From: a virus
Virus genome (UHGV): UHGV-1406243
DNA length: 11,436 bases
Direction: 5' to 3' (one strand)
Shown here: positions 4,167-11,298 of the stretch, piece by piece
Layout of the letters: the number at the start of each line of letters is the position of its first letter
How positions within the stretch are numbered: the stretch's first letter is position 1
The notes under the pieces: model-generated
The model's input: the letters and a program-made list of their open reading frames with translations, nothing else
Databases searched by the model: none
Told to the model about the DNA's origin: nothing
Made by a program: the position numbers and the translations under genes

Positions 4167-5917
4167 AACTGGCACCGAACGTAAAACAGCAGTCACGCGG
4201 CATAAAACACAAAGAAACAGAAGTCATTATTTTTGCGGGTAGTGATGCCTGGTCACACGCAAAACAATGGCAGGAACATGACGCGCGTATGGCCGGAGAT
4301 AATGAGCCTCCTGTGTGGCTTGGGGAGCAGCAGTTATCCGAACTGGATAAGCTGCAAATTGTGCCGGAAGGCAGAAAATCCGTGCGCATATTCAGGGCCG
4401 GATATCTTGCGCCAGTAATGATAAAGGCGATTGGTCAGAAGCTGGCGGCGGCAGGCGTACAGGATGCAAATTTTTACCCTGATGGTATGCACGGTCAGAA
4501 GGTGGAGAACTGGCGCGAATATCTGGCCCGTGAGCGCCAGAATCTTTCTGATGGTCTGGTCATTGAGCTTCCGGTAAAGCAAAAGGCGCAACTTTCGCAG
4601 ATGGCGGACAGTGAGCGCGCGCAGCTGCTTGCCGATCGCTTTGATGGCGTTTGCGTACATCCTGAAAGTGAAATCGTTCACGTATGGCGCGGCGGGGTAT
4701 GGTGTCCGGTCAGCACAATGGAACTTAGCCGCGAAATGGTGGCGATCTATTCAGAGCACAGGGCCACTTTCAGCAAGCGCGTAATCAATAACGCCGTGGA
4801 AGCGTTAAAAGTTATTGCCGAACCAATGGGCGAGCCGTCCGGCGATTTGTTGCCGTTCGCCAATGGTGCGCTTGACCTGAAAACGGGGGAATTTTCCCCG
4901 CACACGCCGGAGAACTGGATCACCACGCACAACGGCATTGAGTACACGCCACCAGCACCAGGGGAGAACATCCGCGATAACGCGCCAAACTTTCATAAAT
5001 GGCTTGAGCACGCAGCCGGAAAAGACCCGCGCAAGATGATGCGTATATGTGCCGCGCTGTACATGATTATGGCGAACCGGTACGACTGGCAGATGTTTAT
5101 TGAGGCCACCGGAGACGGCGGGAGCGGTAAAAGTACATTCACACACATAGCCAGCCTTCTGGCAGGGAAACAGAACACGGTAAGCGCTGAAATGACATCG
5201 CTTGATGATGCTGGTGGACGTGCGCAGGTTGTCGGGAGTCGTCTTATCGTCCTGGCTGACCAGCCGAAATATACAGGCGAAGGAACGGGCATCAAGAAAA
5301 TCACGGGCGGTGACCCCGTGGAAATTAACCCGAAATACGAAAAGCGTTTCACGGCGGTAATCAGGGCGGTGGTGCTGGCGACCAACAATAACCCGATGAT
5401 ATTCACCGAACGGGCCGGAGGTGTGGCACGTCGTCGCGTGATTTTCCGTTTCGACAATATCGTCAGTGAGGCCGAAAAAGACAGGGAGCTACCGGAAAAG
5501 ATCGCGGCTGAAATCCCTGTCATTATCCGCCGATTGCTGGCGAACTTTACCGACCCTGAGAAGGCACGGGCTTTACTACTGGAACAGCGTGACGGTGATG
5601 AAGCTCTGGCAATAAAGCAACAGACGGATCCGGTTATTGAGTTTTGCCAGTTCCTGAATTTTCTGGAGGAAGCACGCGGCCTGATGATGGGCGGCGGTGG
5701 CGATTCAGTGAAGTACACGACCAGAAACAGCCTTTACCGCGTCTATCTGGCGTTTATGGCGTACGCAGGCAGGAGCAAACCGCTAAACGTAAATGACTTT
5801 GGCAAGGCTATGAAGCCAGCCGCGAAAGTTTACGGACATGAATATATTACGCGGAAAGTTAAGGGAGTAACGCAGACTAACGCAATAACAACAGACGAGT
5901 GCGACGCGTTTTTATAA
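4163..5917 (+). CDS. Replication initiator: P4 alpha-like primase/helicase (D5-type SF3 NTPase domain)
   Basis: 584-aa ORF. Walker A GDGGSGKST and Walker B-like RLIVLADQ are read directly in the C-terminal half. Gene size and the iteron array immediately downstream match satellite Pri-Rep / P4 alpha proteins. The N-terminal primase domain was not confirmed motif by motif. Confidence 0.85.
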   Translation: MKLAPNVKQQSRGIKHKETEVIIFAGSDAWSHAKQWQEHDARMAGDNEPPVWLGEQQLSELDKLQIVPEGRKSVRIFRAGYLAPVMIKAIGQKLAAAGVQDANFYPDGMHGQKVENWREYLARERQNLSDGLVIELPVKQKAQLSQMADSERAQLLADRFDGVCVHPESEIVHVWRGGVWCPVSTMELSREMVAIYSEHRATFSKRVINNAVEALKVIAEPMGEPSGDLLPFANGALDLKTGEFSPHTPENWITTHNGIEYTPPAPGENIRDNAPNFHKWLEHAAGKDPRKMMRICAALYMIMANRYDWQMFIEATGDGGSGKSTFTHIASLLAGKQNTVSAEMTSLDDAGGRAQVVGSRLIVLADQPKYTGEGTGIKKITGGDPVEINPKYEKRFTAVIRAVVLATNNNPMIFTERAGGVARRRVIFRFDNIVSEAEKDRELPEKIAAEIPVIIRRLLANFTDPEKARALLLEQRDGDEALAIKQQTDPVIEFCQFLNFLEEARGLMMGGGGDSVKYTTRNSLYRVYLAFMAYAGRSKPLNVNDFGKAMKPAAKVYGHEYITRKVKGVTQTNAITTDECDAFL

Positions 5918-5929
5918 TTTTTTGTAATT

Positions 5930-6160
5930 GCTGTCTACCCTGTCTACCTGAGTAAAGAAAAATACATTTAATTCAGTGCATTAAGTTAGGTAGATAGCCT
6001 TTTTTTACTGTCTACCCACTATCTACCCTCTCTACCTGATTTTACCTGAATCAGACAGGGAGGTAGACACGGGGTAGATAGTGGATAAAAGCACTCTACC
6101 CCGCTGAAAGCCGCGCCATTACTGGTATGAGGGCCACTAAGGTAGATAAGGTAGACAAGG
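5930..6160. other. Putative origin of replication: iteron array of YCTACC / GGTAGAY motifs with dyad organisation; duplicated at 6379..6609
   Basis: At least 11 copies of the core (T/C)CTACC. Direct copies lie at 5933..6048 (TGTCTACCCTGTCTACCTG, TGTCTACCC, ATCTACCC, TCTACCTG) and inverted copies at 6061..6160 (GGTAGACAC, GGTAGATAG, GGTAGATAAGGTAGACAAGG), centred near 6055. It sits directly downstream of the primase gene. Confidence 0.55.
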
Positions 6161-6205
6161 GGAGGCACAACTCAAAACTTTTTAAACGAGGGGGTAAAAA
6201 TAAAT

Positions 6206-6262
6206 ATGCACACTTCAGGGAAATTTAATAAATCACTCAAAATGACTTTGGCAAGGCTATGA
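6206..6262 (+). pseudogene. Truncated duplicate of the start of the 92-aa gene (18 codons, then stop), created by the tandem duplication
   Basis: Same RBS and first 12 codons (MHTSGKFNKSLK) as the gene at 6655; the reading frame then runs into the duplicated primase 3' fragment and stops. Confidence 0.4.
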
Positions 6263-6654
6263 AGCCAGCCGCGAAAGTTTACGGACATGAATATATTACG
6301 CGGAAAGTTAAGGGAGTAACGCAGACTAACGCAATAACAACAGACGAGTGCGACGCGTTTTTATAATTTTTTGTAATTGCTGTCTACCCTGTCTACCTGA
6401 GTAAAGAAAAATACATTTAATTCAGTGCATTAAGTTAGGTAGATAGCCTTTTTTTACTGTCTACCCACTATCTACCCTCTCTACCTGATTTTACCTGAAT
6501 CAGACAGGGAGGTAGACACGGGGTAGATAGTGGATAAAAGCACTCTACCCCGCTGAAAGCCGCGCCATTACTGGTATGAGGGCCACTAAGGTAGATAAGG
6601 TAGACAAGGGGAGGCACAACTCAAAACTTTTTAAACGAGGGGGTAAAAATAAAT

Positions 6655-6933
6655 ATGCACACTTCAGGGAAATTTAATAAATCACTCAAAAAACGCAGAG
6701 ACAGAACAGAACCGAAATATCGCGCGTTAGACATGACAGAGCACGCTTTAAAGGTGGCAATCAGAACGATAGACCGCCACGCGGGGGAAGGATACGCGAA
6801 AGCACATCCCGAACTGATAAGCGCATTCATGACCACGACGGCGGCAAATTTTGCCACGCTGACAGAGCGGGAGATTGCCGAAGCGGAACAGGTAACAACC
6901 ATCAACGTTAAAACCGGAGAGGTGGAATCATGA
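6655..6933 (+). CDS. Hypothetical protein (92 aa)
   Basis: Strong RBS GAGGGGGT upstream; stop overlaps the ssb start (ATGA). Confidence 0.65.
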   Translation: MHTSGKFNKSLKKRRDRTEPKYRALDMTEHALKVAIRTIDRHAGEGYAKAHPELISAFMTTTAANFATLTEREIAEAEQVTTINVKTGEVES

Positions 6934-9803: not shown

Positions 9804-9809
9804 CATAAG

Positions 9810-9832
9810 GCCGGAGAAATCCGGCTTTTTTT
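9810..9832 (+). terminator. Rho-independent terminator (GCCGGA-gaaa-TCCGGC + TTTTTTT), abutting the cosQ-like sequence
   Basis: Read directly; near-identical to the terminator at 7369..7390. Confidence 0.6.
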
Positions 9833-9912
9833 ACGGGTCCTTTCCGGCATATGGACCCGTTACGGGGCGGCGACCTCGCGGGTTTTCGCTATTTATGACG
9901 TTTTTCCGTGAA
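9830..9912 (+). other. Lambda-type cos site: cosQ-like TTTACGGGTCCTTTCCGG, cosN with the 12-nt cohesive-end sequence GGGCGGCGACCT (9864..9875), and a proximal cosB with one R3-like element
   Basis: 40 contiguous bases at 9858..9897 (GTTACGGGGCGGCGACCTCGCGGGTTTTCGCTATTTATGA) match the junction of the lambda right and left ends as I recall it, and TTTACGGGTCCTTTCCGG matches the lambda right-end sequence. It lies about 90 bp upstream of the Nu1-like gene, as in lambda. Confidence 0.8.
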
Positions 9913-9965
9913 GGTGACACCACCACCACTTGATTAATATTTAACCATGCAGTTAAGGTAACATT

Positions 9966-10400
9966 ATGATTGATAAAGCTTGTTTTGTAAGTCAGCAGGA
10001 AATAGCTGAACATTTCAAGGTTAACAGAACCACTATTCGCGCATGGACCAAACAGGGGATGCCGTATCTTAATGCGGATCGCGGAAAGTCTGGCGGTTAT
10101 CACATCGGGCATACATTGCTTTGGTCTTCAGGTAAAAGCCGTCTTGAGACCATCAGATATCACGTAGAAACCAGTGCGCTGGAAAAAATTATGTTTGCCA
10201 GGCTGCTTTCATCTGAGCGTGACGAGTACTCCAGTGAAGAAACAGAACATCGATTTGATGAAGGTTTGCAGATTTACGGCTATTCACCGGAAGATGTGAG
10301 CAAGGCACGAAATAAAATGGCTGGCTTTCTGGCTGGGTGGCGTCATGCCATAAGCGTTCGCCGTGCCAGCATGGAGCAATCAGCCGATACAGAACAGTAA
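9966..10400 (+). CDS. Terminase small subunit homologue, lambda Nu1-like N-terminal DNA-binding domain with a divergent, shorter C-terminal part
   Basis: VSQQEIAEHFKVNRTTIRAWTKQGMPYLNADRGKSGG aligns with lambda Nu1 VNKKQLADIFGASIRTIQNWQEQGMPVLRGGGKGNEV. 144 aa vs 181 aa; I could not align the C-terminal half to Nu1. Sits directly downstream of the cos site. Confidence 0.8.
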   Translation: MIDKACFVSQQEIAEHFKVNRTTIRAWTKQGMPYLNADRGKSGGYHIGHTLLWSSGKSRLETIRYHVETSALEKIMFARLLSSERDEYSSEETEHRFDEGLQIYGYSPEDVSKARNKMAGFLAGWRHAISVRRASMEQSADTEQ

Positions 10401-10453: not shown

Positions 10454-10568
10454 CGGTTAACTGGTTCGATGTCCGGTTTTAGTGTCTGTTTTTTGCGCAT
10501 GTCCGGTTCATGGAAAGCATGTTTTTATATTTTTCATATGGTTAACTTGCAGAGAAACCGGACATGGA
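10454..10568 (-). repeat. cosB-like repeat set belonging to the inverted cos: three ATGTCCGGTT elements (10470..10479 and 10499..10508 direct, 10557..10566 inverted) separated by an AT-rich stretch (10520..10545), plus a GGTTAAC duplication
   Basis: Repeats are read directly. Their spacing from the inverted cosN (about 40, 100 and 135 bp) and the AT-rich spacer resemble the lambda R3-I1-R2-R1 layout, but with a different R sequence (TCCGGTT vs lambda CGTTTCC). Confidence 0.45.
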
Positions 10569-10570
10569 TC

Positions 10571-10654
10571 CCGAAAAATTTTCATAAATAGTGAAAACGC
10601 GCGAGGTCGCCGCCCCGTAACGGGCCATAATTCCAGGAAGGACCCGACGACACC
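10571..10654 (-). other. Second lambda-type cos site in inverted orientation (reverse complement of cosN AGGTCGCCGCCC at 10604..10615, with cosQ-like and proximal cosB flanks)
   Basis: The reverse complement of 10571..10654 reads GGTCCTTCCTGG..GTTACGGGGCGGCGACCTCGCGCGTTTTCACTATTTATGAAAATTTTTCGG, matching the lambda cos junction on both sides of cosN. It is an inverted copy of the cos at 9830..9912. Confidence 0.75.
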
Positions 10655-10679: not shown

Positions 10680-10961
10680 ATGACAGAAGCCGAACTACTG
10701 GGATTAATCCGCCGCGTTACCGGAATCAGCCAGCAGCATGACGAACAGGCCACGCAGCCGGACAGCGTGACCGCCGAAAATTACGCGCGTGTGGTTGCTG
10801 AGGTGATGCGCCGTGATGGTATCCAGCTTAATGATGTGGATATGCGCAACATACGGATCCGCGTTCTTGAAATGCTGGCCTACAATCGCCGCGTGGCACT
10901 GTATCGGGAAACGGAGAAAATTACGTACCACTGGAAGAAGCCGGAGCGGTTACGGCGTTAA
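10680..10961 (+). CDS. Hypothetical protein (93 aa)
   Basis: ATG 10680 follows GGGGG by about 5 nt. It is in frame with the 159-aa ORF in the track, whose upstream extension runs through the inverted cos site and is unlikely to be coding. Confidence 0.55.
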   Translation: MTEAELLGLIRRVTGISQQHDEQATQPDSVTAENYARVVAEVMRRDGIQLNDVDMRNIRIRVLEMLAYNRRVALYRETEKITYHWKKPERLRR

Positions 10962-10967
10962 CGAGTA

Positions 10968-11012
10968 GCGACATACCGTGACGGAGAGTGACAACCAGTG
11001 ACACGCCGTGAC
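10968..11012 (+). repeat. Phased array of GTGAC pentamers at exact 10-bp spacing (10978, 10988, 10998, 11008, plus GCGAC at 10968)
   Basis: Read directly: aGCGACataccGTGACggagaGTGACaaccaGTGACacgccGTGACaaaag. Further GTGACC / GGTCAT motifs and the near-palindrome TGGTCATAATGACCA (11122..11136) follow downstream. Confidence 0.6.
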
Positions 11013-11298
11013 AAAAGACGGTTTAACCGTTAATTAAAAATTGACGGGATTTTGTGCTTTCCGGACGACGTGACCAACGTCATTTTTTAGCGAAAAGTTC
11101 TGATTAAGGTCATTGTCTGAATGGTCATAATGACCACTCCTACAAAACAGGTAAAGCCCACCAGCCTGATTAACAGTTAACCGGAAAAAAAATCCGGTAG
11201 CCCCGTTATGGGGATCCCCATATCAACATTAACGCCCCTCATGAATTAGCGCGCTTCCCCCTGGAAAGATGACCCGCCTGTATATTTCTTGTGTCTAT

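Follow-up and report, generated by a model that had tools for sequence, protein, structure and literature searches.

An inverted second cos site with a prophage-like cosB in an EcCICFT073-type phage-inducible chromosomal island of Escherichia coli

The two cos sites of EcCICFT073, a phage-inducible chromosomal island (PICI), were published and named cos1 and cos2 in Fillol-Salom 2018 (PMC6092414) and Fillol-Salom 2019 (PMC6739421), and the two-cos arrangement is therefore not novel. EcCICFT073 excises and replicates on induction (PMC6092414). Plasmids with either site cloned in them were mobilised by lambda and phi80, though not as efficiently as with the cos of the phage itself, and deletions in the island gave the following results: (i) loss of cos1 reduced island transfer, (ii) loss of cos2 raised it, significantly for lambda, and (iii) loss of both sites abolished it (PMC6092414). 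Transfer by lambda and phi80 depends on cos1, whose island-specific cosB is read by a heterocomplex of RppA (redirecting phage packaging, Rpp) and phage TerS, and cos2 is dispensable for both helpers (PMC6092414; PMC6739421). RppA boosted transfer of the cos1 plasmid only, cosB swaps put the RppA response in the cos1 cosB, and the cos1 cosB segment conferred RppA-dependent packaging when moved into phage 80 (PMC6739421). Deletion of rppA alone brought lambda plaque formation back almost to that seen on a host without the island. No phage cosB was identifiable in cos1 or cos2 (PMC6739421), and the reason for having two sites was left open in both papers.

In Murialdo and Feiss 2022, the cos1-type site is proposed to have one R3-PICI box, at +48 to +65 (ACCACCACC, +55 to +63 from the cosN of cos1), and cos2 is unmentioned. 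The Fillol-Salom 2018 and 2019 papers display cos2 in the lambda orientation, and no discussion of convergent geometry, of a phage counterpart for the cos2 cosB, or of inversions was found there; a literature search found no paper on the PhiR12 phages (see below) and no later work on cos2. The cos2 feature itself is already known; the phage origin of its cosB (cosB2), the conservation of the convergent pair, and the natural inversion of the cassette between the sites, as described below, go beyond the papers searched.

The window (the whole 11,436-nt stretch of DNA analysed, UHGV virus genome UHGV-1406243) was an 11.4-kb island splitting tqsA in E. coli EcPF5 and related strains, and identity along the island was 97–99.96% with EcPF5 and 78–97% with EcCICFT073. 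Pfam matches were obtained for an integrase, AlpA, and a D5-type primase, giving the int, alpA, and pri-ori set of a PICI within about 11 kb, and the other products included SSB, a lambda gpE-like capsid protein, and a gpD-like decoration protein. The tyrosine integrase (185–1399) was the sole recombinase found when the 10 largest ORFs were compared with Pfam and the ORF list was inspected. Since its RppA matched that of CFT073, its cos2 was identical and its cos1 differed by one base from the CFT073 sites, and the published Fig S1A sequences were recovered in it (see below), the element was assigned as an EcCICFT073-type PICI, closely related to EcCICFT073. The two islands shared int, alpA, pri, ssb, the gpE-like and gpD-like genes, and rppA between two cos sites, but EcCICFT073 had its own integrase and was integrated between roxA and phoQ, while the window island sat in tqsA.

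Several further features of the window were recorded. At 5791–6691, a 449-bp unit was duplicated in tandem without mismatch (2.0 copies, 100% match); it took in the primase 3' end together with the origin and its many iterons, with the repeats CTGTCTACC, ACTATCTACCC, and TAAGGTAGA inside it; compared to the window, EcPF5 and CFT073 each had this pri 3' end/ori unit in a single copy. The cassette composed of the two cos sites and the gene between them was anchored on its right-hand side, in all related islands, by a 93-aa ORF (10680–10961, plus strand) adjoining cos2, annotated as a hypothetical protein and giving no Pfam match, and the flank with this ORF was conserved across loci. Repeats of 10 nt that contained GTGAC (AGTGACAACC-like) were clustered immediately after this ORF, in the interval from cos2 to the end of the island, at 10967–11014 and again at 11061–11075; about 2.8 copies were counted, with additional ones besides.

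The core of cos1 (9830–9911, plus strand) formed the left arm of an inverted repeat and contained a cosQ-like core CGGGTCCTT (9834–9842), cosN GGGCGGCGACCT (9865–9876), and TATGACGTTTTT at the I2 position (9894–9905); it was followed by a cosB (9906–10046, plus strand) that overlapped the 5' end of rppA and to which the published chimera primers mapped. This cos1 corresponded to the published cos1 sequence of Fig S1A and differed from that of CFT073 by one base, located in cosQ. A 137-aa ORF was ended by a GC-rich hairpin with a T run behind it (GGCCGGAGAAATCCGGCTTTTTTT, 9809–9832), and this T run merged into the cosQ of cos1; a terminator scan did not flag the hairpin. GTTAAC, which was considered as an Rpp-binding motif and then dropped, occurred 7 times in the window.

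The gene between the two sites (9966–10400, plus strand, 144 aa) had been taken in the original prediction for a Nu1-like small terminase. Its product matched the crystal structure of RppC (PDB 6hlk, E=4.5e-31), its first 50 aa were those of published RppA, and it was identical to CFT073 RppA at 142/144 residues (2 differences). The 6hlk match and the near-identity to CFT073 RppA make the gene an Rpp and no small terminase, with the DNA-binding domain of RppA showing 30% identity to lambda Nu1.

Facing cos1 across this gene was the second, inverted lambda-type cos site (10469–10646, minus strand), which converged with cos1 as predicted. The two arms of the inverted repeat (9834–9911 and 10569–10646) were 78 nt long, 82% complementary, and 657 nt apart, and the 12-nt cosN sequence GGGCGGCGACCT occurred exactly twice in the window on opposite strands, at 9865–9876 (plus) and 10604–10615 (minus), against 0.05 occurrences expected and two matches in 0/200 shuffles. 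The core of cos2 (10574–10646, minus strand; the right arm) comprised an I2-like element TATGAAAATTTTT (10574–10586), the exact cosN (10604–10615), and a cosQ-like core CGGGTCCTT (10638–10646) common to lambda, phage 21, and cos1; this cosQ element was present about 30 nt upstream of cosN, and the cosQ–cosN spacer was divergent. The cosN-proximal part of cos2 was 94% identical to lambda over 51 nt. The whole site corresponded to the reverse complement of the published Fig S1A cos2, and it was identical to CFT073 cos2 over the 133 nt of cosB and from 45 nt upstream to 175 nt downstream of cosN.

The cosB of cos2 (10469–10567, minus strand) was composed of R3 CCATGTCCGGTTTCTCT (10551–10567), an AT-rich segment at the position of the IHF site I1 (10510–10550), R2 GAACCGGACATG (10498–10509), and a third box AAACCGGACAT (10469–10479). 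The repeat ATGTCCGGTT was found exactly three times, within about 100 nt, at 10469 (plus), 10499 (plus), and 10556 (minus); with up to one mismatch it gave 4 matches in the whole window versus 0.65 expected, a count reached by 1/200 shuffles. Counted from the first cosN base on the cos2 strand, the boxes started at +51 (rightward), +110 (leftward), and +140 (leftward), compared to +53/+114/+154 in lambda and +54/+112/+154 in phage 21, which places R3 and R2 of cos2 at lambda-like distances. The prediction of three R-like repeats spaced as in lambda accordingly stood for R3 and R2 but not for the third box, which lay 14 nt closer to cosN and in the orientation opposite to lambda R1. Three R boxes and an AT-rich segment at I1 were shared with the lambda and phage 21 cosB (R3–I1–R2–R1), and the box sequences were different: ATGTCCGG in cos2, CGTTTCC in lambda, and (A/G)TGTCGG in phage 21; the predicted complete three-box cosB with a repeat of its own was thus borne out. 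The IHF consensus was matched in the I1-position spacer only with 2 mismatches. With its 12-nt cosN, its cosQ, and a cosB carrying R boxes and an I1-position spacer, cos2 had the components of a lambda-type cos.

A search of 50,697 phage records gave PhiR12_1 to PhiR12_5 as matches of cos2, at 93% identity over 179 nt. Downstream of cosN and without gaps, cos2 was identical at 131/137 positions (96%) to PhiR12_1 and to prophages in FDAARGOS_401 and EC2, and the same 137-nt stretch matched an EDL933 prophage at 120/137, lambda at 57/137, and phage 21 at 53/137; upstream of cosN, only 27/40 positions agreed with PhiR12_1, and the cosQ-side spacer was of the island type. The phage resemblance therefore starts at cosN and covers the cosB side, and it breaks off right beyond the third R box, short of the phage terS. 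Phages and prophages have the genes for a 169-aa TerS (WP_000235436.1) and for TerL immediately downstream of the PhiR12-type cosB, prophages with this TerS occurring, e.g., in O157:H7 strain EDL933, O104:H4, and ST131. The PhiR12/EDL933-type phage cos shared with cos2 its cosN, I2, R3, AT-rich spacer, R2, and third box at the same spacing, but it had terS and terL next to it, while cosB2 of the island faced the 3' end of rppA; no cognate terS of the WP_000235436.1 type was found in the window.

The prophages compared in alignment A2 had been picked by terS/cosB similarity, independent of the motif (an alternative count of box conservation was discarded as circular, its sequences having been selected by motif). 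Their boxes CCATGTCCGGTTTCTCT, GAACCGGACATG, and AA(A/G)CCGGACAT were invariant while the spacers between them varied, as genuine binding sites would be expected to show. The third box kept its leftward orientation even where the following sequence differed (AR_0085), so the island has kept all three boxes that are conserved in the prophages. The TerS WP_000235436.1 was 46% identical to lambda Nu1 over residues 73–164 (the C-terminal half) and showed no similarity to Nu1 in its N-terminal DNA-binding region, which fits the different box sequence; RppA did not resemble this TerS (E=0.05). The cosB–terS module (WP_000235436.1) was present in 1153/5426 complete E. coli genomes (about 21%; at least 80% of the query covered). 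This number was obtained with a query of cosB plus the 5' part of terS, and the 133-nt cosB2 megablast query alone gave 226 genomes; such short-query counts understate the cosB family, since diverged prophage cosB sequences lack a 28-nt exact seed. These alignments show that, from cosN inward, cos2 reproduces almost exactly the region to which terminase binds in a common lineage of lambdoid prophages. At megablast sensitivity, the CFT073 genome contained the island copy only of this PhiR12-type cosB, and its known inducing prophage (phage 4) had a phage-21-type cosB.

Both genes flanking the cassette were found in 578/5426 complete E. coli genomes, which included O157:H7 in the TerS variant. 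In a spread sample of these 578, 27/28 full-length islands had a span fitting two sites, and representatives of the span classes were confirmed directly; in IMG/VR, the convergent pair was present in 20/20 RppA loci that extended past both ends of rpp, with a second site of the PhiR12 type in about half and of the cosB3 type in the rest. In the comparison with homologous islands that had been called for, both sites were kept in nearly all related islands examined. Cassettes of several types were seen among the fetched representatives, namely those with RppA, those with a full-length 180-aa TerS (SF-166 and O157:H7; 35% identity to Nu1), and those with an rpp-less remnant, and all types had the convergent pair except for one natural deletion (L011). 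In this island (1700–1760; E. coli GIMC1410:G-002-25), the deletion ran from the terS stop codon to the middle of cosN and removed the whole cosB2, and the first cosN showed a C-to-T change just after the 12-mer.

For a given Rpp or TerS gene the cosB at cos1 was constant; the cosB at cos2 varied among PhiR12-type, phage 21/PhiR5-like, O157-type, and cosB3 variants, and the second cosB is on this comparison apparently a swappable module. The variants had the following profiles: (i) the O157:H7-type islands, with the 180-aa TerS in place of Rpp (L012 1023–1901, Rafaela_II; 383 genomes), carried a second cos with three CAGATCC boxes (rightward, leftward, rightward) at +53/+113/+153, for which no close phage or prophage counterpart was found (best phage match 76%), and whose cosB2 had 383 E. 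coli matches with the full query covered, which, at a median of one locus in each genome, seem to lie in islands only; (ii) the SF-166-type cosB2 had its best match in PhiR5_1 (83.6%); and (iii) cosB3 matched phages in the cosN-proximal part only. The description of cos2 as a copy of a phage cosB is consequently firm for the variant in the window only, the other types lacking a close counterpart in the phage collections searched. Three IMG/VR loci with an RppB-like gene (L041–L043; 81–83% identity to RppA) had a different cohesive-end region (...ACACCGGGGGTA..CGCGCAAAAACGCGCT...) with no GGGCGGCGACCT, and they kept two convergent cos-like sites around rpp, the second being of the cosB3 type; a 70%-identical homologue had one site.

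On the best reading, which is given slightly better than an even chance, cos2 would serve for Rpp-independent packaging of the island by a second helper class with a PhiR12-type TerS, as is suggested by the sequence identity, by the architecture being intact, and by the conservation of the site. The terminase of the WP_000235436.1 helper class would start packaging at cos2 directly, with no Rpp retargeting, beside cos1, which is the Rpp-dependent site for lambda/phi80-type helpers, so that the second entry point would make the island usable by more helpers. From cos2, packaging would proceed to the left across the island as far as the following cos2 of the concatemer. Termination of lambda packaging requires a downstream cos in the correct orientation. 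As cosQ-dependent termination is orientation-specific, the inverted cos2 would not be expected to truncate packaging started at cos1, and the higher lambda transfer seen without cos2 would fit a site that is useless or competitive under the 'wrong' helper. The original prediction had offered one site for the helper terminase and the other for an island-specific small-terminase specificity; the idea of two specificities was the best supported of its options, but with the assignment reversed, the RppA-dependent cosB lying at cos1 and that of cos2 being phage-like. Counting against the match between cos2 and a second helper are (i) the cost of cos2 with a lambda helper and its natural loss in at least one island (L011), (ii) the CFT073 genome, which had no close PhiR12-type cosB outside the island and whose inducing prophage is of the phage 21 type, and (iii) the other cos2 variants (O157 type and cosB3), which had no close phage counterpart in the collections searched.

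A rival reading takes cos2 for a functionless relic, a piece of phage cos left by recombination or by joining of cohesive ends and nearly harmless to the island. In its favour are the dispensability of cos2 for lambda and phi80 transfer, which even increases on its deletion, the natural loss in L011 by a deletion from the terS stop codon into cosN, and the end of the phage homology of cos2 just beyond the third R box and ahead of the phage terS. A costly relic should decay, however, and cos2 has three intact R boxes and an intact cosN, a cosB 96% identical to the phage version, and activity as a cos in plasmid assays; the pair was moreover kept in 20/20 two-sided RppA loci, in nearly all sampled islands, and in islands with a different cosN. 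A relic is accordingly considered unlikely.

A somewhat smaller chance is given to cos2 as an interference decoy of high affinity, which would absorb or misdirect the PhiR12-type terminase, to the benefit of the host or the island, with no productive packaging from the site. The 131/137 identity of its cosB to that of the PhiR12 family would allow this, and helper interference is common among PICIs (PMC6739421), but a complete cosQ–cosN–cosB should be packaged and not merely bound, RppA alone explains the interference with lambda, and an intact site looks the same for decoy as for piracy. A decoy for the helper terminase had also been among the original suggestions and gained no support, given that deletion of rppA alone restores lambda plaques and that deletion of cos2 raises island transfer.

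The segment between the two sites had further been proposed to be invertible, and both orientations did occur, between genomes (L014 versus L009 and L010 versus L016). In NR3736, the 727 bp between the cosN sequences were flipped, with 99.7% identity to the window and 100% identity to the direct-form HM670, and the perfect arms were 47 nt long in NR3736 and in HM670. An apparent misfit of NR3736 to a simple reciprocal crossover (both of its spacers being of the cos2 type when compared to the window) was resolved by these same 47-nt arms in HM670. A second, independent pair with an rpp-less cassette, JNEC-KY203 and CEA601S, differed by a flipped 512-bp middle segment (99.4% identical); the perfect repeat was only 25 nt here and centred on cosN, and the distinct outer spacers had not moved, which puts this exchange inside the cosN core. 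The rpp-less islands L010 (1240–1330) and L016 also carried, beside the rpp stop-codon region, an inverted piece of the 3' end of rpp, 70 nt long, indicating an older rearrangement, and the cosB of their other site (cosB3: GGTGGTTGTTGTTT ... ATACAACAACCT) resembled the cosB beside island TerS genes.

These two pairs, differing only in cassette orientation (727 bp, 100%; 512 bp, 99.4%), together with 15 genomes in the inverted RppA form and 64 in the direct form (at least 80% coverage), might be seen as an invertible switch that alters rpp expression or the facing of cosB and is selected as phase variation. This is very unlikely: the scan of window ORFs (the 10 largest against Pfam, and the ORF list by inspection) turned up no invertase gene, the 15 inverted genomes were near-identical to one another and probably go back to one inherited event, 23/23 IMG/VR loci with orientable flanks had the direct form, and both sites are complete and convergent after inversion as before it, with no obvious change of functional state. 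Inversion is read here instead as occasional recombination between the cos cores, with cassette orientation looking fixed within lineages, and what survives of the proposal is a natural polymorphism in two genome pairs. A further probable benefit of the inverted orientation is that an exchange between the cos cores would flip the rpp cassette, which would be lost by deletion if the repeats were direct. A possible route to such a flip would be terminase cutting at both cosN, with the released middle fragment re-annealing in either orientation, because cos chemistry would leave it with two identical cohesive ends.

The phage-type cosB, the Rpp-dependent cos1, and the flipping cassette may be brought together in a joint reading, in which the island would have acquired an intact prophage cosB at cos2 beside Rpp retargeting at cos1, with the module joined at cosN and the cassette flipping around cosN; taken as a whole, this is plausible but held with somewhat less than even confidence. 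Least tenable of all is the predicted bidirectional lateral transduction, in which the two sites of an integrated island would package the flanking chromosome both ways, as nothing beyond the opposite-pointing geometry supports it, lambda termination requires a correctly oriented downstream cos, and EcCICFT073 excises and replicates on induction (see above).

Since the feature is published, its finding here adds little as a discovery. Naming a candidate helper family for cos2, however, turns the open question of why there are two sites into a direct experiment, and the phage-derived cosB2 may explain why the island keeps both. If cos2 is used by these prophages, EcCICFT073-type islands could be mobilised by more helpers than the lambda and phi80 experiments suggest; if true, this would bear on the spread of virulence and defence cargo and would mean that cosB specificity modules are exchanged at cosN.

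A described parallel to a second helper class acting at cos2 is given by the staphylococcal cos islands SaPIbov5 and SaPIbov4, which carry a helper phage cos and are thereby packaged by the unmodified helper terminase, SaPIbov4 having two putative cos sites (PMC6092414). Compared to these islands, the bacteria and phages are different, and the strategy of carrying a helper-type cos would here be joined with an Rpp-retargeted cos in one island.
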